A stretch of DNA of 64,000 nt from an uncultured Ruminococcus sp. (GCA_910577575.1 CAJTOG010000005.1:9188-73187); one strand, 5' to 3'; positions 28,833 through 64,000 are shown, counted from the first letter of the stretch. The notes: generated by a model from the letters alone, not told the origin. Numbers and translations: made by a program.

Positions 28833-29708
28833 TTATTTTGCTGACATAAACTTTTCAAATGAATCTTCACCGCCTGTTGATGCATAAGAATAATATTCAA
28901 GTATATTTGAAGCATCAGTTGCATCAATAAAAGAATCTTTATCAGTATCTGCTTCCAGTTTCTGTTTTTCAGTAAATGAATATTCCCCGCTGGTTGAAAG
29001 CAGTGAATATTCAGCAAGTACATCGGAAGCATCAGAAGCATTGACCATACCGTCTCTGTTCAGGTCACCCATAGCAACATCATCAAGATGAACAGCTATA
29101 GTTTTTGTTGTTCCGCTCTGAGAAGTAATATCCCATTCATTCTTCGAAAATTCATCATCAACAGTAAATGTATAATTATATTTTATATAGCTGTCCGGAT
29201 TATCATTACCATCAGGTACTGTAACCTCATCAGTAAAAGCAGTTGATTTAATATCATATTTTCCGCCTTTAAGTGCGACACTTACAGTATATGTTCGATA
29301 ATCTGATTCAGTGTTATCTCTTCCTTCAACAGCGAATGAATAAAATTCTCCGCCCTTGAGATTTGCTATATAATATGGCTCATCTGTAACTTCCGGAGAA
29401 TCAAAAGTTATTGCAACATCCGCAGTGACATTCTCCGGAATATTTACTATTATTTCACCGTTGACATCATTTTCATCAAATTCATCATAAACAGGCTTTA
29501 AAGACTGTTCTGATGAGGAAACTGATTTAGTTGTCACTGTAATTTCAGTTGTTGTTGTCTGTGGTAAAGTTGTTTCCGCTTTCATATTATTATCCGTAAT
29601 AATATCATTAACCTGTATTCTGTCAGAATCCGCATAAGCTTTAAACTGTGCAGGAACTGCTGTTAAAACAAGTACAGTCGCAATGGCCATTATTTTAAAA
29701 TACTTCAT
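28833..29708 (-). CDS. Secreted dockerin-containing protein of unknown function
   Basis: Signal peptide (…PAQFKAYA), Thr-rich linker, an unassigned module of about 170 aa, and a C-terminal dockerin (GDLNRDGMVNASDA...DTDKDSFIDATDA). Confidence 0.75.
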   Translation of the reverse strand: MKYFKIMAIATVLVLTAVPAQFKAYADSDRIQVNDIITDNNMKAETTLPQTTTTEITVTTKSVSSSEQSLKPVYDEFDENDVNGEIIVNIPENVTADVAITFDSPEVTDEPYYIANLKGGEFYSFAVEGRDNTESDYRTYTVSVALKGGKYDIKSTAFTDEVTVPDGNDNPDSYIKYNYTFTVDDEFSKNEWDITSQSGTTKTIAVHLDDVAMGDLNRDGMVNASDASDVLAEYSLLSTSGEYSFTEKQKLEADTDKDSFIDATDASNILEYYSYASTGGEDSFEKFMSAK

Positions 29709-29719
29709 AAATTCTACCT

Positions 29720-31126: not shown

Positions 31127-31137
31127 TTAACTGCCCC

Positions 31138-35306: not shown

Positions 35307-35489
35307 AAAAATCCTCCTGTTGTCATAACTCACCTTGAATTTTTGATATAAATTTATTATACAATAAGCTGTATTAAAAGTCAATAAAGCAGATACAGTT
35401 TCTTTTGTCGAAAATACCAAAACAATAACTTATAAACAGCATTACCTGATAAATAAAAAACATTCTGCTTTAGGGCATTCCTCAAAAGG

Positions 35490-49150: not shown

Positions 49151-49345
49151 AAACTATCATTCCTTTTCTTTCATGTTTTCTTCTTTATTTTTAATGTATC
49201 TTTATTATGCAAAGAGACAAAATATATCTTAATTTACATAGTTTTATTATACTATTTGTCAGCGTAAAAAGCAAGCGTATTTTCATTAACTACAAAATTT
49301 CAGCACTTTTCACAAAAATTACAAAAAAGTTACAGAAAAATTACA

Positions 49346-49377
49346 TAAAAAAGGATGCCCCATACTTATGGAACATC
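49346..49377 (-). terminator. Rho-independent terminator closing the pilus/dockerin transcription unit
   Basis: The minus strand reads GATGTTCCATaagtATGGGGCATC (10 bp including two G-U pairs) followed by CTTTTTTAT. Confidence 0.6.
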
Positions 49378-49382
49378 TTTTT

Positions 49383-50180
49383 TTAATTAAAATGCCCTGA
49401 CAAGTAACTTGGTCTTTTCAAGGCTGTGTATCTCAGCAGCACTACTATCACTATATTTACAGTAATAGATATAATAAGTCCAACAGCAGTAATCTAAAAA
49501 TAATTAGGTAACTGAACGTCATAAGGATACAATTTTTCAGATTCTTTAACATGCGTTCTGTTTATATCAATTTCTGCCGACTTCTCTGCATATATTTTTG
49601 CCTTTGAAAAAATTTTTTAATTACGGAAACATTTTTCTGCATCGCCAATAATATCAAACGAATCAAAACTCATTCTGAAATCATAACTGTTATTGTTGTC
49701 CATATGTAATTTTATTCCAAAATAAAAATAAATTCCCAGCATAAGCGAAAATGTAAAAAAATAATTCCTATGGTCATAGTTACAGTTGCAATAATGTATC
49801 TGCTTTTACTCCTCATGATATTTTTATTTGTATATCTTCTGAGGAACTGTTTTGAACTAAGATTTATCCTTGACTTTCTTCTGTTTAGTTTTCTTTCTAG
49901 GCTTTCCAAAATTCAGTGCTTTAGCAGGTGAAAGTTTTCTCAATGCCCACATTGTCGAAGTATAAGCGGATATAAATATTGCTGCAATACAAAGTATAAT
50001 TCCACCGATTACAAAATACGAATTTGCTCTGAATTCAAAATCCTGAAAACCAATTTTTTGAATGAATTAAATGATATATTACAAATAACATAAGCCGCAG
50101 CCGTACCTATCGGAACTGCTGCAATTATATAAAACAAGAATTCCGTAAAAAGCAGCGTTTTTTTAAATCTTCCATTAGAT
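49383..50180 (-). pseudogene. Decayed remnants of FtsX-like ABC-transporter permease gene(s)
   Basis: My own minus-strand translation finds three fragments. One is a C-terminal fragment ...FVIGGIILCIAAIFISAYTSTMWALRKLSPAKALNFGKPRKK. The second is an N-terminal TM segment, RYIIATVTMTIGIIF, which shifts frame in a T7 run. The third is a single frame, MDNNNSYDF...CFRN*KIFSKAK...LPNYF*ITAVGLIISITVNIVIVVLL..., interrupted by in-frame TAA and TAG. No ATPase partner is present. Confidence 0.4.
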
Positions 50181-50185
50181 GAAAT

Positions 50186-51451
50186 TCATCTTAAATTTTC
50201 CTCTATAGAATAATCGCCGTATGTCAGGTCACTGCAATTATAATAATCCCATCTGTATTTCTCATCATCAATCGGAAACAATTCACCCGATTCATAGGCA
50301 AGATAATTATCCCAGACTGTCTCAGAACAATCCCATGAATTAAGGAAAACCATTTTCTTGCCCAATGCATTAACAGAAGTATCCATATAAGCCTTATTTC
50401 CATAAATATAGGCGTTCTGTCCCCAACCGTCAACTATTTTGTTCATAGAAAAAGCATAGTTTATTTCTGAACAGCCATTCCGATAGCCTGTACAGTAACG
50501 CAGAATGCAGTCATTACCCTGAATATCAACAAAACTGTCGGCATAATTTTCACCAGACATTCCGATACCGTCAAAAATACAATTTTCAACAATTGTACCC
50601 GTAGTGTATTCCTTGATGTCAATATGTTCTGCTGCAACATTTGGTCCGATGGAGCATCCCCTGATTGTATTATAGTCACATTTATAACCATAACCGCTTG
50701 TACTTTTTGAACTGCCGATATAAATTCCCTCACCGTAAGCAGGTGAAACAAGTCCGGTATCATGTATAAAGCAATTCTCAGCAAGACAGTATGAACTGTT
50801 GTCACGGAAATGGATTCCCTCAGAACCAATATTATATACTTCACAGTTTATCAGCTTTGTATGATTTGAATTATCAAGAATTATGCCTTTTGAAGCATTT
50901 GTAATTTTCAAATCACGTATAACCCACCAGTCGCCTGTAACAGAAAGAGCATAGTTCTCACTAACATTGATGCCCGAAATAACTGCCGGATTTTCCGGAT
51001 TCTCAGAGCGTAAAACTATCGGTTCGGATTCAGTACCGTCTGCCTCACCCTTGAACATATAGCCCTTTGAAGTTGAACCGCTGTAAATATAATCACCGGA
51101 TGCAAGAATAATTTCATCATTCGGTTCAACATCTGCAAGAGCAGCCTTAAGTTCATCCGTATTTGTAACACGGACTATATTTGTCGGTTTTTGCGAATCT
51201 ATAAATTCTTTCCGCATCTGACATAAATCAAATACATCAATTATGCCGTCAGCACACAAATCCGAATTGTCTGAATTAATTAATATATCATCATAATCCA
51301 ATATCCACTTCTGAAGGTAAACTAAATCAGCAGAAGTAAATTTTCCGTCATTATTTGCATCGCCCCTTACAAACGAATCAGCAAAAGCAGAATTTCCGTT
51401 CAATAAAGAAATACAAGAAACTGATAATAATAATACAATAAATTTTTTCAT
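50186..51451 (-). CDS. Secreted N-terminal-dockerin protein with a right-handed parallel beta-helix (pectate-lyase-fold) domain
   Basis: Signal peptide, dockerin GDANNDGKFTSADL...DLCADGIIDVFDL, and beta-helix repeats (NCEVYNIGSEGIHF, NCFIHDTG, GEGIYIGSS, RGCSIGPN, ENCIFDG). The start codon shares 1 nt with the upstream sortase stop (TGATG). Confidence 0.75.
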   Translation of the reverse strand: MKKFIVLLLSVSCISLLNGNSAFADSFVRGDANNDGKFTSADLVYLQKWILDYDDILINSDNSDLCADGIIDVFDLCQMRKEFIDSQKPTNIVRVTNTDELKAALADVEPNDEIILASGDYIYSGSTSKGYMFKGEADGTESEPIVLRSENPENPAVISGINVSENYALSVTGDWWVIRDLKITNASKGIILDNSNHTKLINCEVYNIGSEGIHFRDNSSYCLAENCFIHDTGLVSPAYGEGIYIGSSKSTSGYGYKCDYNTIRGCSIGPNVAAEHIDIKEYTTGTIVENCIFDGIGMSGENYADSFVDIQGNDCILRYCTGYRNGCSEINYAFSMNKIVDGWGQNAYIYGNKAYMDTSVNALGKKMVFLNSWDCSETVWDNYLAYESGELFPIDDEKYRWDYYNCSDLTYGDYSIEENLR

Positions 51452-52104
51452 CAGTTTTCCTCTTTCTTTTCAACCGCTCTTACGGTAACCCTGCTCTGTC
51501 CGCCGATAGTGCAGGTAAACAATGTTAAGTCCCATTCATCAGCAGAACCAAAATCCATTGCCTCAATATCTTTACCATTGATTTCAGTAACCTGTAAAAC
51601 CTCATAATAGTGTGGATATCCGTTTGCATCAGTAAAAATAATTTCCTCACCGCCTGCCAAATCTCTTAATCTTCCGAAATGAGAATAATAATTATGAGCA
51701 GCTATTATAATATCTTTATCGGCAATAGTACCTTTATACCGGCAAGGTGAAATATTAAGACGGGGATAGCTCCATTCACTCATAACCGGAAGTTCTATCT
51801 CCAGTGACGGAACAGAAATAATCCCAATATATGAATAATCTCCTACATAAGTCGTCGCTTCTTCTATAACAGGTGTAGTCGTAGTATCATATTTTGCATA
51901 TTCAGCAAAAAGGTCTTCTTCAATTGTAGTTATAGTAGTAGCCTGAGTTGTTTCAGGCATTCCGATTTTCAGTTCATTTAAAATACTGTTTGCGGCTTCA
52001 CCGCCTTTTTTATTTTCATTCATATTGTACAAAACAAGGGACAACGCTGCAATAAGCAGAGCTGCCCCAAGTAATATACAACACAATCCATGTGTCTTTT
52101 TCAT
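51451..52104 (-). CDS. Sortase (short, N-terminally anchored, not class C)
   Basis: N-terminal TM helix, His in AAHNYYSHF, the TLFTCT active-site Cys and a downstream Arg (SRVTVRA). Confidence 0.8.
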   Translation of the reverse strand: MKKTHGLCCILLGAALLIAALSLVLYNMNENKKGGEAANSILNELKIGMPETTQATTITTIEEDLFAEYAKYDTTTTPVIEEATTYVGDYSYIGIISVPSLEIELPVMSEWSYPRLNISPCRYKGTIADKDIIIAAHNYYSHFGRLRDLAGGEEIIFTDANGYPHYYEVLQVTEINGKDIEAMDFGSADEWDLTLFTCTIGGQSRVTVRAVEKKEEN

Positions 52105-52106
52105 TA

Positions 52107-53399
52107 TCAGTCTTCTCTCCTGCTATTAAAAAGTAAACGTAAACCAATAGCAACAAATATCATACCGCCGAAAAGCATTACAGGAACCGGCCACCAAAGC
52201 TGACCTGTCTGAGGAAGCTTTTCAATTGCTTTAGTAGTAGTTTTAGCAGTTGACTTTGAAGTGCGGTTTGAATTTCCACCACCACTGGAATTATTTGACT
52301 CATTTATTGTAGTTGTCTTGGTACCTGAAATTGTAATATCGGAAGTACTGCTTGTTGATGTATCATTATCAGTTGAAGAAGCGGTTAAATCACCGCTTAC
52401 AGTAGTTACTGTGGCTGACTGTCCAGTGAAAGTTGTTGAATCTTCCGGCTTGACATCCTTTGAACCTGTTGTAGTAGTTCGTGTATCTTCACCGCCATCT
52501 ATCGGACCTGTGCGGGTTGTAGTAACAGCTGTTCTACTTGTACTTTTAGTATCCATCGGAACTGTATGAGTTGTAGTAACAGTTGTAGTTGTTGTCGTTT
52601 GACGCAGCAATTCATTGTCATAGTTATTCATGATAATATACTGTGTTGTATTGTTTCTGTACATTACAAAACAACCGGCAGGAACAGTTACTTCCTTAAC
52701 TCTCCATTCACTGGAAACATCACCCTCCCATGAATAAGTCCAGTTATTTTCCTGACTTAACTTAACAGTATCATAAACAACATTGTTCTCATAAATCTCA
52801 ACAGCAATTTCCACTGGTTTATCAGTTACACCATCAGCATTAGCCCATATTTTTCTTACGGCATATCGTTCAATGTCTCCCGGCAGTGTTCTTTTAATAC
52901 GAAACTTAGGATAACCATCAATTTCTTTTTTACTTCCGTCAACTTCAAAAATAATCGGAACCGGAACAAAAGTATAATCTTCTCTCTTTACGCTTTTTCC
53001 ACATGCAAGATATAAACCGACTTCAAGATTTTCAAAACGAATCACACCATTATTATCTGTTATACCCTTTCTTTCAGGTGAAAGAGAATCAAGCATTGCA
53101 AAATTTTCAAGAGTTGAAGCAGTTTCAGTTATACTTTCTTCAGTAAGACCACCAAGAATCACAGGATAATTTGCAAAATCACCGCTAAGAGTATATTTAT
53201 TACCACTTTTTTTGCCAATCTTATAAATTGACCACTGCATACCTGAAAGAATAAAATCATCTTCCTTGCAATAAAGAATCAGGCTCTCACTCTTCTCTGC
53301 GGCTGAAACATTAACCGTAAGACCTGCGGCTAACATAAGAACCATACCTAATGCACACAATACAGCACCTAATCTTTTGTACATTTTTCGCATTGTCAA
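52107..53399 (-). CDS. LPXTG-anchored minor (probable base) pilin with a CnaB-type domain and a long Thr/Ser-rich stalk
   Basis: Signal peptide and a CnaB-like IRFENLEVGLYLACGK. About 140 aa of T/S-rich tail. Sorting signal LPQTGQLWWPVPV, then a TM helix, then SRRED. Confidence 0.75.
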   Translation of the reverse strand: MTMRKMYKRLGAVLCALGMVLMLAAGLTVNVSAAEKSESLILYCKEDDFILSGMQWSIYKIGKKSGNKYTLSGDFANYPVILGGLTEESITETASTLENFAMLDSLSPERKGITDNNGVIRFENLEVGLYLACGKSVKREDYTFVPVPIIFEVDGSKKEIDGYPKFRIKRTLPGDIERYAVRKIWANADGVTDKPVEIAVEIYENNVVYDTVKLSQENNWTYSWEGDVSSEWRVKEVTVPAGCFVMYRNNTTQYIIMNNYDNELLRQTTTTTTVTTTHTVPMDTKSTSRTAVTTTRTGPIDGGEDTRTTTTGSKDVKPEDSTTFTGQSATVTTVSGDLTASSTDNDTSTSSTSDITISGTKTTTINESNNSSGGGNSNRTSKSTAKTTTKAIEKLPQTGQLWWPVPVMLFGGMIFVAIGLRLLFNSRRED

Positions 53400-53411
53400 C
53401 CACCTTCCTTA

Positions 53412-54269
53412 TTAATTCAATAATTTCATATAATCTTTTTTCCTTTTATGTAACTTTCTGTTACCGCTGAAAATCCAGAAGCAAATCAGAATCAAAACCA
53501 GCGGAGCAGCAATAAACGGTATAACAAGCATAGGGTCAACTTTCAGAGCATCAGGTTCAACTTTAACAGTATGTTCATAAATTGTTTCTATACGATGCGA
53601 ACGTATAAGCAGACGATGAGAGTTGATTCCGTATGGTGTACAGGTCATAAGAGTAACATAATCACCGTCAGGAATAACTGAAAGCTTATCTATTTCACTT
53701 GGCTCAACAATAAGAATTTCCTCAACTTCGTATGTAAAAACTTCATTAAGAACAGTAATGGTAAAAGTATCGCCAGTAACAAGTTCATCCAAATCAGTAA
53801 ATAATTTTGCTGATGGCAGACCCCTGTGAGCTGAAATAACCGCATGGGTATTCTTTCCGCCTATCGGTAATGATGAACCCTCCAGATGACCGGTAGCAAT
53901 ATTTAGAACTTCCGCACTTGTTCCGTGATAAATCGGAAGCTCAACACTTATGACAGGTATTGCAATATAGCCTATGATTCCCGAATCGCCGACATTAAGA
54001 ATTTCATCATAATCTGTAAGCTTATCATATTCAGTAAATGGTGAAACAAGTTGATTCAGTCTGTTGTTGTAATCGTAAGCTGCCTCCCAGATTTCATTAT
54101 ATCTGTCGGGGTCAAGCTGCTGAACAAATTCATTATAATTTGCAACCATACGGCTCTGAACCCTTTTGTTCCACCAGTCACTGACTGTAGGATAAAGCAT
54201 TACGGAGAGTCCCACCAGCAAAATAATAACTAATATAATTGTTGAAATAATACCAGATTTTTTCCTCAT
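53412..54269 (-). CDS. Class C (pilus-polymerising) sortase
   Basis: N-terminal TM helix, a lid-region SPF (variant of DPF/W), LPIYHGTS, TLMTCTPYGINSHRLL, and the extra C-terminal TM helix typical of class C. Confidence 0.85.
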   Translation of the reverse strand: MRKKSGIISTIILVIILLVGLSVMLYPTVSDWWNKRVQSRMVANYNEFVQQLDPDRYNEIWEAAYDYNNRLNQLVSPFTEYDKLTDYDEILNVGDSGIIGYIAIPVISVELPIYHGTSAEVLNIATGHLEGSSLPIGGKNTHAVISAHRGLPSAKLFTDLDELVTGDTFTITVLNEVFTYEVEEILIVEPSEIDKLSVIPDGDYVTLMTCTPYGINSHRLLIRSHRIETIYEHTVKVEPDALKVDPMLVIPFIAAPLVLILICFWIFSGNRKLHKRKKDYMKLLN

Positions 54270-54285
54270 GGAACCCTCCCTAATG

Positions 54286-54313
54286 CTCCTCCCGGCGATT
54301 AAGCCGAGAGGAG
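54286..54313 (-). promoter_or_regulatory. GC-rich intercistronic stem-loop between the backbone pilin and sortase C genes
   Basis: The minus strand reads CTCCTCTCGGCttaatcGCCGGGAGGAG (11 bp, one G-U pair). No U-run follows. The sortase Shine-Dalgarno sequence GGGAGGG lies just 3' of it. Confidence 0.5.
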
Positions 54314-54356
54314 TTTAAGGTTTATTTATTGAATGACATATAATTCAATCAGAGAA

Positions 54357-56126
54357 TTAAAGTTCTTCTTTCTTCATACGCTTCTTTGTAATAAGGAATA
54401 TGCCTGCAACTGCAACCATTGCACCACCGCCAAGATAGAACAATTTTGTACCAATGCCACCGGTTGATGGAAGTGAAGTACCCTTGTTATTTGTAATCTC
54501 AAAATCAGCATTGCTATTGGTTTCATCAAATTTAAGTGAAACATTATTGCTTTCACCTTCTGCATTTGCTCCTGAAATCTTCTCAAGATGTGAAGTAACT
54601 TCAATCTTAATTTCTGCACGCTCTGTAAGCTCATTATAGCCTGTAGGAGCATTTACTTCATCGAGATAATAAGTGCCGGCATCAAGACCCTTAATTAAAA
54701 TTACACCATCATCAGCTGTTTTAATTGTTTCAGCTACTTTGTCTTCAGAATCTTTAACCGGATAATAAGCACCATCTGCACCCTTATAAAGCTCTATCTT
54801 ATTACCATCAGTTGCGGCATCATAAAGCTCAAATTCAGCTCCGGCAAGTGTAGCTTTTGTATCTCCGTCAATTTTAGTACCATTAGCTTTATATGTGTAT
54901 ACACCTACAGTGTCTTCCGGTGTTTCACCTGTTTCTTCATCGCCTTCTTCTTCCTCATCTGGTCCCTTAGGTTTTTCATCCTTTGAATCAGGAGCTTTTT
55001 CTCCTCTTCCTTCCCAGTTAGGATTGTTGGAGTAAGTCAACTTAACCGTATTTATATTAGCCTTTGAAGTAACACCATAAACCAATTCATCTTCATCTGC
55101 TTCTGCAATCATTGCATCTTCACTAAGATGAGCATTATAGATAACTTCAATAACTGAACCGTCTGTTAAATCAGCATCATATTCTTTAATATCGGCAATT
55201 GTAAGATTCCATGAACCATCTGTAAGACCTGCTACAGCTTCTGTATAGTAACCATTTTTAGCAGTTGTTTCATTGTATACAGGAACTTCTATATCACCAA
55301 CCTTAACGCTTGCAATGCTGTCAAATATAACACCTTTAGCAAGAGTATCAATAAAACTTACCTTGTATGTATCGTAAGCAGCATATTCAGCATCAGCATC
55401 TAAAGTAGCAACAAGCTTAAACTGGAATGTTTCATTGATGTTATGGTCGGCTGTTTCACCCCAATGTTCTGTGTTCTGACCGTCTGTGTTATCCCAAACC
55501 TGTTTATCAACCTTTGGAGCTGCGTGTTTAGCAGTAATTTCTACATCTGTACCTGCAAGCTTAACCATATAACGTGATTTAGCACCTGAGTTTGAACCGT
55601 TTCCATTGTTTTCAGGAGCAGCTGCATCAACAACAAGATAATAACCTGCATCAAGATTTTCAAGTGTACCAGCTTTGGTATCATCTAAATTAGAAGCTAC
55701 AATATCAAGAAATGCATTCATTTCTTCAGATTTATCAGTGAAAACATTAACTTCTGTCTCTTCAACAGTTTTCTTTGCAGTACCTAAAATCTTTGCAACA
55801 TCAGCAGCATCTTCAACATTTTCATCAAAATATTTTCCAATTACACTATCTGCCTTCAATGCTGATAAAATAGAATCTCCTTTTACACCTATACCCCATT
55901 CAACATTACTGAAAGTTTCAGTTAAAGCACTTGTATCACCGTCGGTTTCAGTTGTATAAGTACCTTTGAAAATCTGATAGGACTTATAAGAATGTTTTGC
56001 TCCATCAGTATCATTAACAGTAATATTAAGAGCAGATGAACTGAAATTCATAGCCATAGGAGCGGTCATTGTTGCAGCCATAAGGGTTGCCGCTATTGCA
56101 GCAGTTACTTTCTTAAAGTTTTTCAT
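54357..56126 (-). CDS. LPXTG-anchored backbone (major) pilin, isopeptide-domain fimbrial protein
   Basis: Signal peptide (start at 56126, AAGGAGAA Shine-Dalgarno sequence). E-box YYLDEVNAPTGY. An acidic Pro/Glu linker. Sorting signal LPSTGGIGT, then a TM helix, then KKRMKKEE. Confidence 0.8.
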   Translation of the reverse strand: MKNFKKVTAAIAATLMAATMTAPMAMNFSSSALNITVNDTDGAKHSYKSYQIFKGTYTTETDGDTSALTETFSNVEWGIGVKGDSILSALKADSVIGKYFDENVEDAADVAKILGTAKKTVEETEVNVFTDKSEEMNAFLDIVASNLDDTKAGTLENLDAGYYLVVDAAAPENNGNGSNSGAKSRYMVKLAGTDVEITAKHAAPKVDKQVWDNTDGQNTEHWGETADHNINETFQFKLVATLDADAEYAAYDTYKVSFIDTLAKGVIFDSIASVKVGDIEVPVYNETTAKNGYYTEAVAGLTDGSWNLTIADIKEYDADLTDGSVIEVIYNAHLSEDAMIAEADEDELVYGVTSKANINTVKLTYSNNPNWEGRGEKAPDSKDEKPKGPDEEEEGDEETGETPEDTVGVYTYKANGTKIDGDTKATLAGAEFELYDAATDGNKIELYKGADGAYYPVKDSEDKVAETIKTADDGVILIKGLDAGTYYLDEVNAPTGYNELTERAEIKIEVTSHLEKISGANAEGESNNVSLKFDETNSNADFEITNNKGTSLPSTGGIGTKLFYLGGGAMVAVAGIFLITKKRMKKEEL

Positions 56127-56197
56127 AAAAATTCTCCTTTTCTTGTACATAAAGCACATAAAATTTAATTGTTTATCAATTCGGAAAAATCCGGATT

Positions 56198-56785
56198 CTA
56201 AACTTTACTGATGACCTTAAAAGGCCATATGCGTAAAATAACCTTGCCGATGATATATTCATCAGCAACGCATCCAACAGAAGTTGAACGGCTATCAATT
56301 GAAACAGAACGATGGTCACCCATAACAAAAATTCTGTTTTCCGGAACCTGATACGGCAATTTTATATCACATTCGCCAAAAGCCTTTTCATTCACATACG
56401 GTTCATCAAGCTCGTTGCCATTGAGATAAACTGTACCATCATCTGCAATATCAATAACATCACCAGCTGTTCCTATAACTCTTTTCAAAAGAATTTTATT
56501 ATTGAAATAAAATGCTACAATATCACCGCTTTCGAAATTACTGCGTTTGCTGCATATAAGAAGTTCATCATTAAGAAGCGTCGGAGTCATACTTGTTCCT
56601 GTAACTCTTAAAACCGGTAAGAACAGCATTGAGACCAGAACTGCAATTGATGCAACAACAAGAAGTGAAGAAACTGTTGTATAAAGAGTTTTAACATAAT
56701 TCCTTCTGTAGTTAATCCGCCTCACTTCAGAATTAAGCTGTTCAGCTGTAGGAATGTCTTTTGTAAATTCTTCCATACTGCTCAT
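56198..56785 (-). CDS. Signal peptidase I (S26) encoded inside the pilus locus
   Basis: N-terminal TM helix, catalytic-Ser box GTSMTPTL, Lys box LLKRVIGTAGD and GDHRSVSIDSR. Confidence 0.85.
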   Translation of the reverse strand: MSSMEEFTKDIPTAEQLNSEVRRINYRRNYVKTLYTTVSSLLVVASIAVLVSMLFLPVLRVTGTSMTPTLLNDELLICSKRSNFESGDIVAFYFNNKILLKRVIGTAGDVIDIADDGTVYLNGNELDEPYVNEKAFGECDIKLPYQVPENRIFVMGDHRSVSIDSRSTSVGCVADEYIIGKVILRIWPFKVISKV

Positions 56786-57063
56786 TGCCCCGTTTCTTCT
56801 GAAGCACTATAACTGCTTACAGGATTCTGCTGATTCTTTTTGCCGAAATAGTTTTCAGCAGAATTTTTAACTGCATCTGAAATTATTTTAATTAATTCAT
56901 CGGAAAGATTATTCTTGGCTTCAATAGCGACTTTCGATAAATCATCAATACGAACTTTCAGACTTTCATTTTCTTCTTTTAGCTTATCAAGTTCTTCCCT
57001 TAGATAAAACATGAGTTCGAGCAATTCTGAGCGTTTAAGCTTCCGAAGTTCCTTGTCTGCCAT
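56782..57063 (-). CDS. Small coiled-coil protein (93 aa), translationally coupled to the signal peptidase gene
   Basis: ATGA overlap with the downstream gene. GGAAAGGAG Shine-Dalgarno sequence. Heptad-rich LRKLKRSELLELMFYLREELDKLKEENESLKVRIDDL. Confidence 0.55.
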   Translation of the reverse strand: MADKELRKLKRSELLELMFYLREELDKLKEENESLKVRIDDLSKVAIEAKNNLSDELIKIISDAVKNSAENYFGKKNQQNPVSSYSASEETGQ

Positions 57064-57107
57064 ATTTTCTCCTTTCCGGAAAACAACTCATCCAAATTAT
57101 TTATTTT

Positions 57108-57136
57108 ATTATACACCTTGATTTCTGATTTGTCAA
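57108..57136 (-). promoter_or_regulatory. Consensus sigma-A promoter (TTGACA-17 nt-TATAAT) driving the coiled-coil/SPase/pilin/sortase genes
   Basis: The minus strand reads TTGACAaatcagaaatcaaggtgTATAAT, about 45 nt upstream of the ATG at 57063. Confidence 0.55.
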
Positions 57137-57267
57137 GATTTATTACTAAAATTTAGTGATTTTTGTCTAAATGCACAAACTAAGTTATTTTTAATTGTAC
57201 AACATATAACATTTATCACTTAAATTTCATTAAAATGTTATATTTTTTGGATAATTTGCCGATTATC

Positions 57268-57299
57268 GTCTCTCCCTGTTTTTCAGGTCAGAGAGAGAC
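57268..57299 (-). terminator. Hairpin downstream of the giant adhesin gene; probable terminator with a weak U-tract
   Basis: The minus strand reads GTCTCTCTCTGacctgaaaaaCAGGGAGAGAC (11 bp, one G-U pair), 16 nt after the stop codon. Confidence 0.45.
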
Positions 57300-57314
57300 A
57301 TTAATCAGATAAAT

Positions 57315-60300
57315 TTATGCAGTTTTTCTGCGTCTGCGTCTGTAGTAAATAATACCCAAAAGACTTCCGCTGATTATAAGAATACCTGTAACATGATAAG
57401 GTTTTGTACCTGTTCCGCCTGTTGACGGCATTTCTACACCTTCCGGAGTTTCTCTGTAATTATAAATTTCAGCCATGCTGTCACCGGGCTTTGAAGCATT
57501 GATAGCATAAACAGTCTCATTGTCGCCGTCACTGAATGCATACAAAGGAGTGTAACCGTTCGGCGAATCAATCTCTGCTATCCAGTAATAATAAGGATTG
57601 CCATTTTCATCATAAACATCAAGACCATCAAATGTCAACGTTCTGTTGAAATCGCCTTTACCGCCGTCAAATGTAACAGTTTTGCCGTTAACTCTATAAG
57701 CTTCAAACGGGTCAGCCTGTTCTGCATATGTTGATGCAGAATAAAATCTTGCGGAACGCTTCATATAGTTTGCAGGAACTATTTCGTCATACTGGAATTT
57801 ACAGCTTTCAACTGTCCAACAATCATTGTTTGAATATACTTCAATACAATCTATTGATGTAGCATTTATAAAATCAATTGTAACTTCCATACCATTACAA
57901 GTTACGTTGCAAATACCAGAGTTATTATTATAACTTAAACCTAAAACAGCACCATCATTAGAATATATACCTGTTTCATTTTGTTTGAATTTAATAATAT
58001 ACATAGACCAACTGTTACTTGTTGAACTCATTTGCATGGTTATCTTTTGCACTTTTTTAGCCGAATCTGCTTTTATCTCATATGATTTACCGGCTTCCAT
58101 CTTAATTGAACCTTTTACTACATTAATTGAAATTTCTTTTGAAACACCATCATCACGAGTTACTTTAATCCTTGTTGTTCCTTCTGAAATGCCCTTAACA
58201 GTAATAGTACCGTCATTATTATTAATAACATCTGCTATATTAGAATCTAAAGATTCACAAGAAAACTCACCATAATACGGATTAATAGTAAATCTGATTT
58301 CCTTATCAACAGCAACTTCACTGCTATCACCGGTGACATCAAAATTGTTAGGAAGAACAACATTTATATTAAGAGGAACTGTTAAACCGTTTGCTTTGAC
58401 ATTGATTGTATAGTTACCCAAAACGGTCGCTGTAAGTTTATTACCGTCAATAGTTATATTTTTGTTGCTGCAATTAAATTCTGCATTGTCAACGTCAACG
58501 CCGCTATCTGTAACTTTAAGCGTATATTCTGTACCTGCTGTAACATTATAACAGCCATTAACAAACTCTGCACCATCAACAGAAGCCGTCAGAGAAGAAA
58601 CAGTTATATTAATTGTTTCAGTAGTTTTTCCGTCTGTTATCGCAACAGAAGTTTCTCCGTCACTGATACCATTAATTTTAATTATGTTACCGTTCACTTC
58701 AACTGATGCAATACCTTCATCAAGACTCGACTTATCAATTGAAATACCTGATTTATTTGCAGTTATTTCAGTAATATTATCAACAGTCACAAGAACGTTT
58801 TCCGGAAGTGAAAGTTTCAATTCCAGTTTATCTGCTATATCAGACGGCATTTCAGTACTGCGGTAGAGCTGGACTGTAATACTGTCCTTAAGATGAGCAT
58901 CATTTCCATCGCTCCATGTTTTATTGACGCTTATTGAAAACTGTCTTGTATTTGTAATTTCAACTGTTCCTGCATTTGTTCCGTCAGTCTTGGATTCAAA
59001 ATCTGCCGGTTCTATCGGAGTTTTGGAATAACCGTCAATTTCAATTTCATCAATAGTATAGTAATAAAGATTTCCGTTTGCATCACGGGCAGGTAAATCA
59101 GTATATTCCCATGTATCTTTTGTGCCTGATACATCTGTTGGGTTATCTGTAAGAACAGTTTCCCACTCGGAATATGTTCCGTCAGCATTCTTAATACGTC
59201 TTTGCAGATAGAAGTTGTTTGGTAAAAGTGCGTGCTTATCTGCATCAGCTATCGCATCGTCGCCAACCCATGTTTTATGGACACGTATTGAAGTTTTTTC
59301 TGTGTTACGCCTATTTACAACAGTTACAGGAGTATCACTTGCTGCCTGCTGTGCATTGTCTTCATAAGATACTTTCCATACATTAGCAACAGCATCTGTT
59401 TCTTCAACTCCATAGATATACTTTCCATTACTGTCTCCTACAGGAACATCTATAGCCTTTGTCCACGAACCATCTGAATTAATAGTAAACTTTGCTATAT
59501 CAGGGTCTTTATCGTCAGTTGTAAAAGAGCCGTCTGTTTTAAGGTATTCTATGTAGTAAGATTTTATAGATTTACCATAAGCTTCAGCTATTTTATCCCA
59601 ACCGGCTGCATTTGGATGACAACCATCATCCTGAAGATATTTATCTGTGATAATTTCATTAATGTCAACTAAATAAATATTCGGGTCAGCATCAGCAATT
59701 TCTCTTACCGCTTCATTTGCATAAGAGATAATATTTTTACATTCTGTTTCCCAATCCTTCAATACTGTGGCATCATTACTATAAGGATAATTCCACCACC
59801 ATTTTCCGCCTTCTGTAGCTTCTGTGCTGTTTTTAAGCCATTTGAAATCTGGAATTGTGCCAAGGAAAATAATCGGATTCTTACCGCTATTCTCTTTAAG
59901 ATTATCAATCAGAGTAGCATAGCTTTCTTTTATTGCTCTTTTAACTGTATCCTTATCAGCACTTTTTATACCGCTGCCCTGATGAACATCATTAGTTCCA
60001 CCAAGCAGACAAATAACATCTGCTCCTTGTACATTAGTATTGAATGCACTGATTTGTGCACTGTTCTGACCGAGATTTGTAATCGAATTACCTTTAAGTT
60101 TGAATCCGGCTGATGTCAATGCCTTTGCTAAATCCAGAGGATAAGCATCGTTTGTGGTCTGATAACCATAAGTGATAGAATCACCTACAGCCATAACACT
60201 CACTTCATTTTCCGGAATAATGTTTTTATAAACTCTGACTTTGACTTCGTTTGGAATTTCATTGTCTGGAAGCGGAGTTACACCGTCTTCATCAACCCAC

Positions 60301-63300
60301 TGTTTCTGAACAACAATAGCATTACGTGTATTTTTAATAGTATAGTCATACATTGTATTGCTGGCTGAACTGCTGTCCAAATATGATGCTGTATACTTGC
60401 TTTCTGCTCCTGATTCTGAAAGGTTTATACTTTTTTCAAAAACATAGTAATAGTAAGAATCACCGTTCTCAACAGGATTGCCTTCTTCATCAAGTTCGCT
60501 CATCGGAAGTCCGGTCCATGAATAAGTCCAATCGGTTACTTCGTCATCATTGTGTTTAAGGATAACTGTTTCAATCGGTTCTATACCGGATATAGCATTC
60601 TGAATAGTAGCATTATTAAGATTGTCAAGTTTCTTGTTCAGGCGATAAAGTGCAACTTCAACTGAATCATTAACATGAACTGCTGAACCGTCACTCCACT
60701 GCTTTCTGACAGATACAGTTACATCTGTTGCATTGATGTTCTTGTTTGTAACAGTAATTTCACCTGTGAGCTGATTAATATTGAAAACACAACTTACAAC
60801 ATAATCATCTCCAAGCTCAGGAGTCTCAACAGCTTCAAACGATACGTACTTACTCAGGTCTGCTTCAGCAATAAGGTCTGTAATATCTGAACGCCAGTTG
60901 TTTCCGCTTGTAAGTTTTACATTTTCAGCAACGGGATTTTCACTTCTTACGCCATTACGGTCAACACCATATATGCTTATAGTAATTTCACTGACAGGTG
61001 CTGACATGGTTTTGCCTTTTGAATTCTTCCATTCTTTTATAAGATATAGTTTCTGTGAGTTTTTAATTGTAACAATACCGTCATCATTTACAGCATTGCC
61101 AACATAAATCGGAAGATATCCACCTTCTTCAGAATCTGACAGGAATTTTCCTGATTTTTCATCAAGAATATAAGTTATTCCGTTGACTGTATAAGCTGTT
61201 TCTTTCACATAGTAATAAATAGGTTTACTGTTCTTGCCGTTCGGCAGATTATTCCAGATGTTACCGTTAAGCTCACTTATTTTTATATTTTTTACGGACG
61301 TAAATGAGCTGTCCATAATTCCCAAATCATCAGCATTTGCAGGAATTGCATTATCAGGCATACCTGAAGCAGTCTTTTTATAAGACCAGTAAAGTTCTAC
61401 AGTAACAGAATCATTATCATGATTAGCATTGTCGTCGCCGTACCATTCCTTAGAAATACCTATATCAATAAGCTTACTGTTCGGAATTTCGATATCATCG
61501 CCTGACCTTATCTGAATTATATTTGATTCTGAAACATTATTTGGAATCTGAACAGATGAAATATTGCTGTTGTATGCAAAATAATGTGTTGAAACGTAGT
61601 TTGTCAGGAATTTTGTATAATCTGTTCCATCAAGGATTGTAGTACCGTTATTAAGATAATCAATAATAAGCTGACGGAATTTTTCACCATTTTCATCATT
61701 CGGTATTAAGTTTGAACCTTCGTAGCCTTTCGGAACTGAAACCTCAATAAGCTTATAAAGAATATCCTGCTCAATCGCAACTTCCTTTGCGGGATTTACA
61801 TTAATATCGCCCGCATTTTCATCAATCTTACTTCCCTGCATACCTGTTTCAGACCATGTAATTGCTCCACCATTCTGGGCGTCAACCGATTTTGCAAAAT
61901 ACCATAAACCATTTTCATACTTAGCCATAAGGAAAGTAGCATCAAGACTGTTTATGCTGTAGTTGCCTACATTGACTTTTTTGATTTTAGGTCTGCTGTT
62001 TGTTGAAACTGTACCACTTGAACGTGAGATTCTGTATTTATCATCTCTTTTTGTATCTTCAGCAGTTGCACTGTCTGAAATCAGCTTTGCTCTGTTATGG
62101 AATGCAATTTCGTGACCTGTAGGCGGAACATATCCGGGTTTCATTGTATCAAGCTTGCCGTTTACTACAACTGAACTCTTACATCCATTCAAAACAGACG
62201 GTGTATTTTCATTTGCTATAATTTTATACGTATACTGTATTTCAATATGCATTTCATCAGGGATTGAAAGTTCAAGAAGTGCCGCACCATCATTTGTTGA
62301 TTTTCCACTTGCAAACTTCATTGTGTATTCATTCTGCTTAAGCTCTGTCTTTACGCCATTTTCATCAACTTTATATAGTTTAAGACGTGTCATGAGAATA
62401 TCAACAAGTTTTGAACCCTCTGTTATTTTATTATGACACGTATCCGTATAGCTGTCTGTATCGAAAATATCCCTTATATCAATTGTATTTCCGTTTGAAA
62501 GATTCTTGCCTTCCGGATTCACATCAAGAGTATACTGTACATATCCGGGAATAAGTGACTTTTTATAGTCCTTTACCAGAAGATTTGACGGAGCTTTGAT
62601 TGTAATTGAAGCATAATCGTTCTCTTTTGTTTCAATTCCAGGTGTTTTATCAGATTCCTGATTTATTTTAAAAATTTTGTTGCTGAATGTAAAATTACCC
62701 TTTACAAGTTTTTCTTCTAATTTACTGCACTCAACTTTAACACTGTATGCAATATAAAATTTCTCCCAAGACTTGGGCTTATTAAAATAAACAGCATGAT
62801 TTTCCTTGTCATAGTAGAAATGTTCTCCGGATTCATAATTACTCCAAATTGCTTCTACACTGTCTTCAGCTATCAAATAGTTACCAAAAGTAGATTGATA
62901 CCATACCATAATTGGAGCTACAATATAACCGCCTTCATCTGAATGATTACTACTATTCATAATTGTTCTCAAGGAAGGAATAATTGAATCTTTATTCGAA
63001 GCAAAGCTTTCTTGTTGACAATTGCTATTATAAATTAATTCAAAATCTTCCGGAAGATAATCAACAACAGGATAAGTTAAACCATTTGTTCCTCCAGAAC
63101 CTTCAATTATATATGTGAAAACATAATAATCCTTTTTTTCACCGTTTTCATTCTCTAATTTCTTCTTATACTGACTTAAATCATCTCTCTGAATAGATTC
63201 TACTTCACTGCAACTTGAATTATAAGCAGTCTTTTTAATACCAATATCTTGTTTAAAAGTATTCTTTATTTTGTTTCCTTCATAACTGATTGAATATTTA

Positions 63301-64000
63301 CCCTCTGATACTTCAAATGATTTTGCGTCAGCAGGAATATCCTTTCTGTTTCCGTCCTTATCCGTGTATGCAGATTCACGGAAACGATACATTATTTCAT
63401 TCCAGCTTATACTGCCGTCTTCATTTTTGATATACTCATACTTTGGTAAATTTTTTAATGCAGTACCATTCCATAAAACATCACTGATTGCGTTTTCACT
63501 TGTCAGACTAACAGTAACAGGATTTCCGGAATTATCAATAGTTACATTTCCTGAATCATCTACTGTTCCTTTTACTTCCGTCCAGTTTTCATCTTTTAAA
63601 AGTTTTCTTTCCAGAACAAATTCAACTTCTTTTGGTCTGTTATTGTCCTTGAATTCAACTCCGTTTTCATCAGTTCCGCTATATCCGGAATCGCCAGACC
63701 ATTCTTTTTCGAGAGCAATCTCAGTATTTTCAAAAATCGCAGAGTTTGTAATCTTATAACCGTCTGCTGCATTTCCTGAACGAATCCAGCTATAAACCTG
63801 ACCTTCCGAATCCATATATCTGTCGCCTTTAATTACGACACTCTCTTTACCTTTTTCCTTGAAAGCAATTTCAGAAACGTCATAATGATAAATTGTTAAT
63901 TGACCGTTTACAATTTCCTGATTAGGCAAATTATTCCATGTATACTGCCAGTTTTTTTCTGAAGTAAGCTCTATTTCATCACCATAAGGCTCATTGTTTC
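57315..64000 (-). CDS. Giant (>2,227 aa; N-terminus beyond the window) cell-wall-anchored multidomain adhesin, probable pilus tip protein
   Basis: The reading frame stays open from 63929 to 64000 (…NNEPYGDEIELTSEKNWQYTWNNLPNQE…). Many CnaB-type modules (W..Y.W.NLP, KxW.DD repeats). A CnaA/collagen-binding-like region with an E-box-like LYKLIEVSVPKGYE. An SGNH hydrolase insert. Big_2-like Ig modules. C-terminal MPSTGG, then a TM helix, then RRRRRK. Confidence 0.85.
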   Translation of the reverse strand, partial: NNEPYGDEIELTSEKNWQYTWNNLPNQEIVNGQLTIYHYDVSEIAFKEKGKESVVIKGDRYMDSEGQVYSWIRSGNAADGYKITNSAIFENTEIALEKEWSGDSGYSGTDENGVEFKDNNRPKEVEFVLERKLLKDENWTEVKGTVDDSGNVTIDNSGNPVTVSLTSENAISDVLWNGTALKNLPKYEYIKNEDGSISWNEIMYRFRESAYTDKDGNRKDIPADAKSFEVSEGKYSISYEGNKIKNTFKQDIGIKKTAYNSSCSEVESIQRDDLSQYKKKLENENGEKKDYYVFTYIIEGSGGTNGLTYPVVDYLPEDFELIYNSNCQQESFASNKDSIIPSLRTIMNSSNHSDEGGYIVAPIMVWYQSTFGNYLIAEDSVEAIWSNYESGEHFYYDKENHAVYFNKPKSWEKFYIAYSVKVECSKLEEKLVKGNFTFSNKIFKINQESDKTPGIETKENDYASITIKAPSNLLVKDYKKSLIPGYVQYTLDVNPEGKNLSNGNTIDIRDIFDTDSYTDTCHNKITEGSKLVDILMTRLKLYKVDENGVKTELKQNEYTMKFASGKSTNDGAALLELSIPDEMHIEIQYTYKIIANENTPSVLNGCKSSVVVNGKLDTMKPGYVPPTGHEIAFHNRAKLISDSATAEDTKRDDKYRISRSSGTVSTNSRPKIKKVNVGNYSINSLDATFLMAKYENGLWYFAKSVDAQNGGAITWSETGMQGSKIDENAGDINVNPAKEVAIEQDILYKLIEVSVPKGYEGSNLIPNDENGEKFRQLIIDYLNNGTTILDGTDYTKFLTNYVSTHYFAYNSNISSVQIPNNVSESNIIQIRSGDDIEIPNSKLIDIGISKEWYGDDNANHDNDSVTVELYWSYKKTASGMPDNAIPANADDLGIMDSSFTSVKNIKISELNGNIWNNLPNGKNSKPIYYYVKETAYTVNGITYILDEKSGKFLSDSEEGGYLPIYVGNAVNDDGIVTIKNSQKLYLIKEWKNSKGKTMSAPVSEITISIYGVDRNGVRSENPVAENVKLTSGNNWRSDITDLIAEADLSKYVSFEAVETPELGDDYVVSCVFNINQLTGEITVTNKNINATDVTVSVRKQWSDGSAVHVNDSVEVALYRLNKKLDNLNNATIQNAISGIEPIETVILKHNDDEVTDWTYSWTGLPMSELDEEGNPVENGDSYYYYVFEKSINLSESGAESKYTASYLDSSSASNTMYDYTIKNTRNAIVVQKQWVDEDGVTPLPDNEIPNEVKVRVYKNIIPENEVSVMAVGDSITYGYQTTNDAYPLDLAKALTSAGFKLKGNSITNLGQNSAQISAFNTNVQGADVICLLGGTNDVHQGSGIKSADKDTVKRAIKESYATLIDNLKENSGKNPIIFLGTIPDFKWLKNSTEATEGGKWWWNYPYSNDATVLKDWETECKNIISYANEAVREIADADPNIYLVDINEIITDKYLQDDGCHPNAAGWDKIAEAYGKSIKSYYIEYLKTDGSFTTDDKDPDIAKFTINSDGSWTKAIDVPVGDSNGKYIYGVEETDAVANVWKVSYEDNAQQAASDTPVTVVNRRNTEKTSIRVHKTWVGDDAIADADKHALLPNNFYLQRRIKNADGTYSEWETVLTDNPTDVSGTKDTWEYTDLPARDANGNLYYYTIDEIEIDGYSKTPIEPADFESKTDGTNAGTVEITNTRQFSISVNKTWSDGNDAHLKDSITVQLYRSTEMPSDIADKLELKLSLPENVLVTVDNITEITANKSGISIDKSSLDEGIASVEVNGNIIKINGISDGETSVAITDGKTTETINITVSSLTASVDGAEFVNGCYNVTAGTEYTLKVTDSGVDVDNAEFNCSNKNITIDGNKLTATVLGNYTINVKANGLTVPLNINVVLPNNFDVTGDSSEVAVDKEIRFTINPYYGEFSCESLDSNIADVINNNDGTITVKGISEGTTRIKVTRDDGVSKEISINVVKGSIKMEAGKSYEIKADSAKKVQKITMQMSSTSNSWSMYIIKFKQNETGIYSNDGAVLGLSYNNNSGICNVTCNGMEVTIDFINATSIDCIEVYSNNDCWTVESCKFQYDEIVPANYMKRSARFYSASTYAEQADPFEAYRVNGKTVTFDGGKGDFNRTLTFDGLDVYDENGNPYYYWIAEIDSPNGYTPLYAFSDGDNETVYAINASKPGDSMAEIYNYRETPEGVEMPSTGGTGTKPYHVTGILIISGSLLGIIYYRRRRRKTA
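59565..60204 (-). other. SGNH/GDSL esterase domain embedded in the adhesin stalk
   Basis: Block I VMAVGDSITYGY, block II NLGQNS, block III LLGGTNDV and block V DDGCHPN, flanked on both sides by CnaB-type repeats. Confidence 0.8.

Follow-up and report, generated by a model that had tools for sequence, protein, structure and literature searches.

A gene locus predicted to encode a three-subunit, sortase-assembled pilus in an uncultured dockerin-bearing Ruminococcus

Introduction

Does a fibre-degrading gut bacterium carry the genes for a covalently assembled pilus, and if so, which of the known pilus systems does it resemble? The question is raised by one end of a 64,000-nucleotide (nt) stretch of DNA from an uncultured Ruminococcus sp. 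(GCA_910577575.1, CAJTOG010000005.1:9188-73187), here called the window. All genes of the pilus locus in question lie on its minus strand between positions 50186 and 64000 and reach the window end. An earlier reading of this sequence, referred to below as the original prediction, had described a pilus island of the fibronectin-binding, collagen-binding, T-antigen (FCT) type in a cellulosome-bearing clostridial genome. On the evidence of gene content, profile matches and predicted folds, a pilus of the SpaA/Ebp/PilA type, built by sortase from three subunits, is the likely product of the locus. The FCT kinship did not survive the same analysis, and the island character gained no support from it.

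Results

Gene content of the locus

In the direction of transcription, the locus reads adhesin, a 93-residue protein (p93), signal peptidase, backbone pilin, class C sortase (SrtC), base pilin, second sortase (Srt2) and a dockerin/beta-helix gene (Table 1). The 5' flank of the adhesin gene lies beyond the window, and the gene itself was completed from near-identical contigs. The sequence features behind the original prediction were all recovered where it had placed them: the adhesin motif MPSTGG with a hydrophobic stretch and RRRRRK directly ahead of a TAA stop codon (57317-57315), LPSTGG and the E-box YYLDEVNAPTGY in the 589-aa pilin, LPQTGQ in the smaller pilin, TLMTCTP in a class C sortase with hydrophobic segments at both termini, and TLFTCT in a second short sortase. 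The locus amounts to a complete cluster for a sortase-dependent pilus: a class C sortase and a signal peptidase accompany three substrates that are tip-like, backbone and base-like in type. The gene list had the right order, but it lacked the 93-aa gene between adhesin and peptidase and the dockerin gene after Srt2. A six-frame scan of the whole window returned credible cell-wall sorting signals for the adhesin, the backbone and the base pilin, and no others.

Backbone pilin and class C sortase

The backbone matched the Pfam families SpaA (PF17802), GramPos_pilinBB (PF16569) and Gram_pos_anchor (PF00746) as well as TIGR01167, and it scored 42.6 bits against a cutoff of 30 with the NCBIfam model TIGR04226, which describes the RrgB-type Lys-to-Asn isopeptide D2 domain. 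Its C-terminus consists of LPSTGGIG, a helix and KKRMKKEEL. In an alignment of 35 homologues (40-79% identity), K200, K208, D260, N367, K418, E490 and the LPxTGG motif were invariant. K200 is the last lysine before the middle domain (xAK or xPK, then AAPxVDKQV) and occupies the position of the SpaA-type YPK lysine, which points to it as the acceptor, or pilin-motif, lysine. E490 is the Glu of the E-box YYLDEVNAPTGY. The middle domain holds the set K208/D260/N367 and the C-terminal domain the set K418/E490/N545, completed by Asn or Asp at the domain end; from these residues and the fold we infer two isopeptide-type Ig domains with predicted intramolecular bonds.

The AlphaFold2 (AF2) model of the backbone (mean predicted local distance difference test, pLDDT, 78) contains three Ig-like domains, and nearly all of its top Foldseek matches were shaft or basal pilins. 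The best were Streptococcus sanguinis PilA/PilB (E 3e-27), and further matches included Clostridium perfringens CppA (E 1e-23), EbpB, LrpA, T6 (rank 17), GBS80, RrgB, BcpA, SpaD and SpaA. The family profile gave the same picture: its match to S. sanguinis PilA/PilB (E 4e-84 to 1e-70) spans the whole protein and brings the motif blocks into register, and C. perfringens CppA was matched at E 2e-40. Structure prediction, which had been proposed together with the original prediction, thus returned the fold of shaft pilins, and the Lys/Asp/Asn sets are invariant by sequence. On this profile and fold evidence, the protein is classed as a SpaA/PilA-type three-domain shaft pilin and not as a two-domain, YPKN-less FctA.

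The 285-aa sortase scored 272.5 bits with NF033745 against a cutoff of 160 and has hydrophobic segments at the N- and C-terminus; by profile it is a class C, pilus-polymerising enzyme. The class C lid motif is DP(F/W/Y). At the lid position SrtC reads SPF, and its homologues read APF, SPF, DPF or gave nothing with a regular expression.

These two proteins bear on the alternative in which no pilus is built and the two sortases anchor the three substrates to the wall as monomers. Sorting signals alone are indeed no proof of polymerisation. In this locus, however, a class C sortase is found alongside a homologue of crystallised shaft pilins, a backbone whose junction lysine is invariant and which contains isopeptide domains and an E-box; a base pilin with a YPK lysine is added to these. 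Such a combination of sortase and pilin is the signature of polymerising systems and is conserved over hundreds of species, and we therefore regard purely monomeric anchoring as highly improbable.

Base pilin and second sortase

The base pilin comprises an N-domain ending in the YPK lysine (DGYPKF), a CnaB domain, a Thr/Ser/Pro-rich tail of ~130 aa, the signal LPQTGQLWWPVP, a helix and a basic tail. Invariant in its family are the Lys of YPK and, within CnaB, a Lys (RKIW), a Glu (WRVKEV) and an Asn (IIMNNY). The linker is very variable in length and the LPQTGQLWWPVP signal almost invariant, with LPQTGQ serving as the signal in 27 of 51 homologues. The protein's profile matched the Cna B repeats of Staphylococcus aureus (E 5e-46) and, by way of its N-domain, the N-terminal, pilin-motif-bearing domains of SpaD, SpaA and GBS52, a minor pilin.

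The sorting signals of the locus are split: the adhesin (MPSTGGTG) and the backbone (LPSTGGIG) share an xPxTGGxG "triple glycine" signal, whereas the base pilin (LPQTGQLW) lacks it. The related loci behave in the same way, with backbones ending in LPxTGG and base pilins in LPQTGQ(LWWPVP). In Lactobacillus rhamnosus GG, the triple-glycine signal LPxTGGxG marks the SrtC substrates, that is, tip and backbone, and the LPQTG-bearing SpaB is a substrate of the housekeeping sortase (PMC5536039). At least 32 loci contained both a WWP-type signal and an adjacent Srt2 gene, and most apparent exceptions were due to the strict distance and strand filter.

Srt2 matched the general sortase family PF04203 (51.6 bits), and none of the class-specific NCBIfam models reached its cutoff, the best being class C with 29.6 bits against 160. 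Among 19 scanned members of the Srt2 family, the class models matched weakly only (best class C E-value 5.9e-14). Invariant residues are His137, Cys198 (TLFTC), Arg205/209 and an extra Cys121 (PCRY), and the only hydrophobic segment is N-terminal. Against PDB, the profile found the Ebp class C SrtC first (E 2.8e-17) and Bacillus anthracis SrtA at E 6.5e-15; a DL[FY]xEY segment, present in the closer homologues only, aligned with the lid region of the Ebp SrtC. The family comprises 2,772 homologous clusters, and those with NCBI names among the matches listed are termed merely "sortase". By these profiles, Srt2 fits none of the sortase classes A-F. The profile searches recommended earlier hence matched models for CnaB, the SpaA-type pilin and the class C sortase, and left Srt2 without a class.

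We propose Srt2 as the sortase that is cognate to the base pilin and anchors it. Alternatively, Srt2 could be another pilus-specific enzyme that adds, for instance, a base or tip subunit, much as the pneumococcal and group B Streptococcus (GBS) pilus islands have several sortases, and an unlinked housekeeping enzyme would then do the anchoring. The best PDB match to a class C enzyme suits this alternative, pilus loci with more than one sortase are familiar (PMC7900414), and the standard model places the housekeeping sortase gene elsewhere in the genome (PMC5536039). Yet Srt2 falls far short of the class C model, has no C-terminal membrane helix, and adjoins and co-varies with a base-pilin signal that lacks the triple glycine; such a role for Srt2 other than anchoring is, in our judgement, rather unlikely.

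The giant adhesin

The original prediction had given the tip protein more than 2,200 aa. The gene does not begin at the TTG at 63929: the window holds the C-terminal 2,227 codons, and the reading frame is still open at base 64000. Near-identical contigs that carry identical neighbouring genes yielded the full-length protein (P0001), which has 3,286 aa and opens with a signal sequence. This is followed by ~700 aa without assigned domain, CnaB stalk repeats, a central block, more CnaB, an SGNH/GDSL domain, Big_2 and a C-terminal region without assigned domain. Pfam matched six Cna_B stretches, the GDSL/SGNH domain and Big_2. No match to thioester, TQXA or VWA models was found on full-length P0001 with Pfam and NCBIfam hidden Markov models (HMMs).

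The central block was modelled by AF2 as mostly beta (mean pLDDT 79) and retains 37-45% identity in most of the distant family members. Its Foldseek matches, of low template-modelling (TM) score, were to the pilins EbpB and LrpA and to the MSCRAMM N2-N3 adhesins Bbp, SdrG, SdrD, CNA and ACE; Streptococcus oralis PitA was a weak fold match (rank 49). PDB sequence searches with the central block, the C-terminal 323 aa and the SGNH domain returned nothing, or remote SGNH matches only. The block is the candidate ligand-binding region. The SGNH motifs VGDSIT, GTND and DGCHPN are intact in the window, 24 of 35 homologues have the full set, and the esterase is apparently active. The adhesin probably attaches to acetylated polysaccharide or to a host or plant surface. 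Close homologues were confined to Ruminococcus/Oscillospiraceae metagenome bins.

Met in place of Leu in the adhesin sorting motif had been singled out as an oddity. The substitution is real, but it recurs: MPSTGG was present in 11 of the 34 adhesin homologues with a sorting motif, and Met at the first position is therefore read as a tolerated, recurrent family variant.

Two observations concern the flank of the adhesin gene. The contigs of two sister loci (L088 and L089) both begin, at positions 1-35, with CGAGGGTTCAAGTCCTTCTGCCCCTGCCA, which resembles the T-arm/acceptor 3' end of a tRNA and lies ~270-300 nt upstream of the adhesin start. An Rfam search did not confirm tRNA identity for this 34-nt stub, which is too short. 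The stub may explain the assembly breaks and could mark a tRNA-adjacent locus. In a third contig (L087, NODE_842), positions 1-1215 hold the start of a GGGtGRT-family gene (137 residues) fused to a 50-aa fragment of a penicillin-binding protein (PBP) transpeptidase ahead of the adhesin gene. This GC-rich first ~1.2 kb was not used as adhesin flank because it is probably a chimeric assembly.

Transcription units and the place of the adhesin

The hairpin that follows the adhesin stop codon (57299-57268) is strong (-25.7 kcal/mol, z = -6.9, as good in 0 of 200 shuffles). It is not followed by a T-run, and the terminator scan made no call there, which ruled it out as a canonical intrinsic terminator; it is kept in L088 and not in L089. 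Downstream, the promoter at 57136-57108 matches the sigma-70 consensus at 12 of 12 positions and is identical base for base in L088 and L089, two diverged sister loci, and the p93 ATG has an AAGGAG ribosome-binding site ahead of it. From p93 onwards, as far as the dockerin gene, neighbours overlap or lie at most ~90 nt apart, a spacing consistent with a single operon. In the sister contigs, a promoter-like TTGACT-17-TATAAT of its own and a strong ribosome-binding site precede the adhesin gene. The adhesin would accordingly be transcribed from its own promoter and the genes from p93 through the dockerin gene from the promoter at 57136-57108. Of the transcriptional separation claimed earlier, both hairpin and promoter stand, with the reservation that the hairpin has no T-run.

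About 25-45 nt upstream of the -35 box, at 57180-57161 on the minus strand, lies the block GTTTGTGCATTTAGACAAAA, an imperfect palindrome TTTGT-N8-ACAAA. Promoter, GTTTGTGCATTTAGACAAAA block and 5' untranslated region are kept in L088 and L089, where the remaining spacer has diverged. The block may be an operator.

The separate transcription unit matters for the question of whether the adhesin belongs to the fibre at all. It might be an independent, monomeric wall-anchored MSCRAMM-like protein beside a pilus made of backbone and base pilin only. The hairpin after its stop codon and the separate conserved promoter of the assembly genes, its own promoter-like element, a size well beyond known tip pilins, and a mix of CnaB stalk, Big_2 and enzyme domains typical of stand-alone surface proteins all suit that reading. 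Its sorting signal, however, is of the SrtC type (xPxTGGxG), as is the backbone's and unlike that of the base pilin. Moreover, a large xPxTGGxG protein (~600-3,300 aa) is encoded just upstream of the backbone in 46 of 57 loci, usually with a gap below 100 nt, even though it is often unrelated in sequence to the adhesin of the window. A free-standing adhesin is thus an unlikely alternative, albeit one with concrete points in its favour, and we retain the adhesin as the probable tip subunit.

Signal peptidase and p93

The signal peptidase scored 122 bits with TIGR02227, the equivalog model of bacterial signal peptidase I (SPase I), against a cutoff of 47. Its boxes GTSMTPT (Ser), LLKRVIG (Lys) and GDHRSVSIDSR line up with the catalytic boxes of S. 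aureus SpsB, which it matched at E 8e-16, compared with E 2.8e-8 for Streptococcus pyogenes SipA. The Ser and Lys boxes were kept in most locus homologues. In S. pyogenes SipA, Asp and Gly replace the catalytic Ser and Lys and there is no peptidase activity; the homologues of Streptococcus suis and Streptococcus agalactiae keep the Ser/Lys dyad (PMC4049620). Because the dyad is kept here, an active, locus-dedicated enzyme is predicted as a better reading than a SipA-type chaperone.

The p93 gene (57063-56782) overlaps the peptidase gene by 4 nt, to which it is translationally coupled. Its product is a small coiled-coil, cytoplasmic protein in which no hydrophobic segment was found and which matched no family in Pfam or NCBIfam. 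A homologue stands upstream of the peptidase in 15 related loci, and relatives numbered 182 representatives at E<=1e-3, with only the N-terminal ~45 residues in common (MxDKELRKLxRxELLELL...). By its conservation, p93 appears to be a partner of the signal peptidase.

Distribution and gene order in relatives

Patterns derived from the backbone alignment, applied to one-genome-per-species data, found at least 584 backbone relatives in Ruminococcus, Lachnospiraceae, Oscillospiraceae, Eubacterium, Erysipelotrichaceae, Christensenella, Bifidobacterium and Streptococcus. Cultured carriers are R. flavefaciens YAD2003 and YL228 and Faecalibacterium prausnitzii ATCC 27768. Among 80 species-representative loci retrieved for comparison, 37 had an uninterrupted run of backbone, SrtC, base pilin and Srt2, including loci from Ruminococcus, Lachnospiraceae, Oscillospiraceae and Bulleidia, and a signal peptidase was present in 55. 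The commonest order was p93, peptidase, adhesin, backbone, SrtC, base pilin, Srt2. The order of the window, adhesin, p93, peptidase, backbone, was found only there and in the sister lineages, whose adhesins are 74% (L088) and 51% (L089) identical. The survey proposed with the original prediction thus established the assembly module as widespread, but the FCT-like order as the property of a narrow clade. Since most related loci are ordered differently, we read this order as a lineage-specific arrangement and not as inherited FCT organisation.

Two copies of the assembly module side by side were also observed, divergent in R. flavefaciens (L025, L053, L054) and in tandem in an Oscillospiraceae metagenome-assembled genome (MAG; L076).

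The dockerin/beta-helix gene begins 1 nt inside the Srt2 stop codon and is apparently co-transcribed with the pilus genes. Its product matched Pfam Beta_helix and has an N-terminal dockerin-like segment (Dockerin_1 just under cutoff). An orthologue tagged Pel9A-like_beta_helix stands at the same position in L088, and L089 lacks the gene. By this distribution, it is a clade-specific passenger of the operon with a predicted pectate-lyase-like product.

Automatic annotations of public MAGs call the components "isopeptide-forming domain-containing fimbrial protein", "Cna B-type domain-containing protein" and "sortase". The searchable published literature contained no sortase-dependent pili in Ruminococcus and no mention of the string LPQTGQ, and the TANB77 "pilin" paper does not mention sortases; the Ruminococcus reviews cite only the type IV pili of R. 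albus. The description as an additional, poorly described attachment organelle therefore agrees with the Ruminococcus literature found, but the pilus type itself is already known elsewhere. Its homologies indicate a type widespread in gut Clostridia and related to the pili of S. sanguinis and C. perfringens.

Relation to known pilus systems

The order tip adhesin, signal peptidase, backbone, sortase, small pilin does reproduce cpa-sipA-fctA-srtC-fctB, with p93 as an extra insertion, and the corresponding roles of tip adhesin, signal-peptidase-fold protein, backbone, pilus sortase and wall-spanning small base pilin can be assigned. The three-domain T6 backbone of FCT-1 was moreover among the fold matches (rank 17). 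A true FCT-type island, homologous to that of S. pyogenes and horizontally acquired, would explain this order. Beyond gene order, however, the resemblance ends. The FCT-2/3/4 pili use a class B sortase, their FctA backbone has two domains and no YPKN-type lysine, and Cpa is a thioester adhesin (PMC7900414). None of these features, nor the Asp/Gly of SipA, recurs in the window, where we found a class C sortase, an intact peptidase dyad, a SpaA-type junction lysine and no thioester domain by HMM; FCT homology was rejected on these grounds. Most related loci have another order, and among solved structures S. sanguinis PilA/PilB and C. perfringens CppA stand nearest. The term "island" found no support: GC content is 0.33-0.38 throughout without a shift at the locus, so that composition is uniform and native, and no mobility genes were seen, with no integrase or transposase 3' of the locus in the window. 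FCT regions are flanked by hsp33 and spy0136 and contain rofA/nra and genes for fibronectin binding; this setting was not found, and the neighbours are instead a polysaccharide epimerase/dehydratase, UvrABC and a dockerin protein. We attach next to no probability to descent from an FCT island.

Closer parallels lie elsewhere. The S. sanguinis Pil pilus (PilA/PilB/PilC with SrtC; PDB 8wxd, 8wgg, 9uvr, 9uvm) has a homologous backbone that gave the best Foldseek matches; both backbones contain AKsaaPTvdKQV, YSNNPN, the E-box and LPxTGGiGT, and the sortase is of class C in both systems. The locus described here differs in its clostridial host, giant enzyme-bearing tip, LPQTGQLWWPVP base pilin, unclassified Srt2 and p93. 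In layout, it is most like FCT-3 and the PI-2 islands of pneumococcus and S. oralis (pitA-sipA-pitB-srtG1-srtG2), in which an adhesin, a signal-peptidase homologue, a backbone, a sortase and a second sortase follow one another. PI-2 is not known to have a separate base pilin. SipA homologues have been reported in the S. sanguinis pilus cluster and in some S. pneumoniae clusters (PMC4049620).

The pili of C. perfringens (CppA; VR-10B CnaA-FimA-FimB) are likewise from Clostridia, and CppA is a homologous backbone. The VR-10B operon encodes a signal peptidase as well as a class B sortase (PMC8088525); it differs from the present locus in that sortase and has no counterpart of the Srt2/LPQTGQLWWPVP pair, of p93 or of the SGNH-bearing adhesin. 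L. rhamnosus GG SpaCBA-SrtC1 and Enterococcus faecalis Ebp share the three-subunit plan, the class C sortase, the LPxTGGxG signals of tip and backbone and the LPQTG base pilin. Unlike the present locus, they rely on an unlinked class A anchoring sortase and have no signal peptidase in the locus. By analogy, its mode of working would be that of the pili which a class C sortase builds in S. sanguinis, E. faecalis, L. rhamnosus and C. perfringens.

Table 1 Features of the pilus locus (window coordinates; P0001, full-length adhesin; ORF, open reading frame).
Feature	Position	Strand	Evidence or note
Adhesin, large ORF open to window end	57315..64000	-	Frame, Pfam, sorting signal
Conserved central block of adhesin, Ig-like domains (P0001 1330-1900)	61476..63188	-	Conservation, AF2 model
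SGNH/GDSL hydrolase domain in adhesin (P0001 2329-2525)	59601..60191	-	PF13472, 55 bits vs cutoff 32.9
Adhesin sorting signal MPSTGGTG, hydrophobic helix, RRRRRKTA	57318..57431	-	xPxTGGxG type
Stem-loop directly 3' of adhesin stop codon	57268..57299	-	-25.7 kcal/mol
Sigma-70-type promoter of putative assembly operon (p93 to dockerin gene)	57108..57136	-	12/12 TTGACA-17-TATAAT
p93, 93-aa ORF	56782..57063	-	Overlap with peptidase gene, homologues
Type I signal peptidase (S26)	56198..56785	-	TIGR02227, catalytic boxes
Backbone (shaft) pilin, 589 aa	54357..56126	-	PF17802, PF16569, PF00746, TIGR04226, fold
Class C sortase (SrtC), 285 aa	53412..54269	-	NF033745, TLMTCTP
Base (anchor) pilin, CnaB protein, 430 aa	52107..53399	-	YPK lysine, CnaB set, LPQTGQLWWPVP
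Second sortase Srt2, 217 aa	51451..52104	-	PF04203, TLFTCT
Dockerin/beta-helix protein	50186..51451	-	Pfam Beta_helix

Remainder of the window

The remaining window is ordinary chromosome with polyamine and glycogen genes, SpoIIE, PFK, UvrABC and two further dockerin proteins. The earlier description of a dockerin-bearing, cellulosome-type genome was borne out by the dockerin proteins and by a nearby GH9-GH16 enzyme, and a fibrolytic, dockerin-bearing, Ruminococcus-like gut bacterium is supported as host. In the enzyme (21859-25065, plus strand), a 1,068-aa cellulase/beta-glucanase fusion, CBM4_9 and a CelD_N Ig-like domain are joined to GH9, with GH16 at the C-terminus.

The minus-strand region 28833-32541 holds an MBOAT acyltransferase (31138-32541) and an AlgX-like SGNH/DHHW protein (29720-31126) next to a dockerin protein (28833-29708); the first two resemble a pair for polysaccharide O-acylation in surroundings related to the cellulosome. 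At 33375-35420 (minus strand), a 681-aa protein combines choline-binding/cell-wall-binding repeats with a transglutaminase-like core domain. Between the dockerin gene of the pilus locus and a polysaccharide-synthesis gene lies ~1 kb of AT-rich DNA with no credible ORF (49151-50185), which contains a terminator-like hairpin at 49377-49354 (minus strand). The Rfam scan of the window returned two divergent tRNA genes only, ~175 nt apart (9259-9332, minus strand, and 9508-9580, plus strand), and no match within the pilus locus.

Discussion

If the locus encodes a pilus of the SpaA/Ebp/PilA type, its assembly can be sketched as follows. The pilins would be exported by Sec, and their signal peptides would be removed by the peptidase of the locus. 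SrtC would cut the xPxT/GGxG signals of adhesin and backbone after their Thr, which it would link to K200 of the backbone subunit that follows, so that the 3,286-aa adhesin would be placed at the tip and the shaft grown from backbone subunits. The YPK lysine of the base pilin would accept the last backbone subunit; Srt2 would then process the LPQT/GQ signal of the base pilin and hand the fibre over to peptidoglycan, and the Thr-rich tail would span the wall. The tip would carry MSCRAMM-like Ig domains and an SGNH esterase.

Several points weigh against this account. The pilus is known here through its genes, profiles and fold models, and both the isopeptide bonds and the Lys-Thr linkages are predictions that draw on conserved residues and fold. 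Tip pilins characterised so far are much smaller than the adhesin, which a strong hairpin and a promoter separate transcriptionally from the assembly genes. An intact Ser/Lys dyad is no proof that the peptidase processes the pilins. The role given to Srt2 derives from co-occurrence and a distinct signal, its profile being about equally near class C and class A, and its anchoring function was judged from the sortases of this locus.

Three elements depart most from convention: the Srt2/LPQTGQLWWPVP pair, p93 with its peptidase, and the giant tip with its esterase. More tentatively, and as a reading that we hold less likely than not, we suggest that Srt2 and the LPQTGQLWWPVP pilin form a dedicated, locus-encoded anchoring pair, with Srt2 representing an undescribed sortase subclass in thousands of gut Clostridia, and that the tip carries an active SGNH esterase. 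If this is true, the locus-encoded Srt2 replaces the unlinked housekeeping sortase of textbook models, and the fibre is both an attachment device and a deacetylating tool on plant or host glycans, alongside the cellulosome. The Srt2/LPQTGQLWWPVP pair could also offer a new sortase specificity for protein engineering.

Since cultured carriers exist, the pilus prediction is directly testable. Fibre adhesion of ruminococci is currently credited to cellulosomes and type IV pili. Together with hundreds of similar loci in Ruminococcus, Lachnospiraceae, Oscillospiraceae and Faecalibacterium, the present one points to an organelle of a third kind, assembled covalently and unstudied in these organisms, and the hypervariable giant tip adhesins may set the substrate or host to which each gut Clostridium binds.

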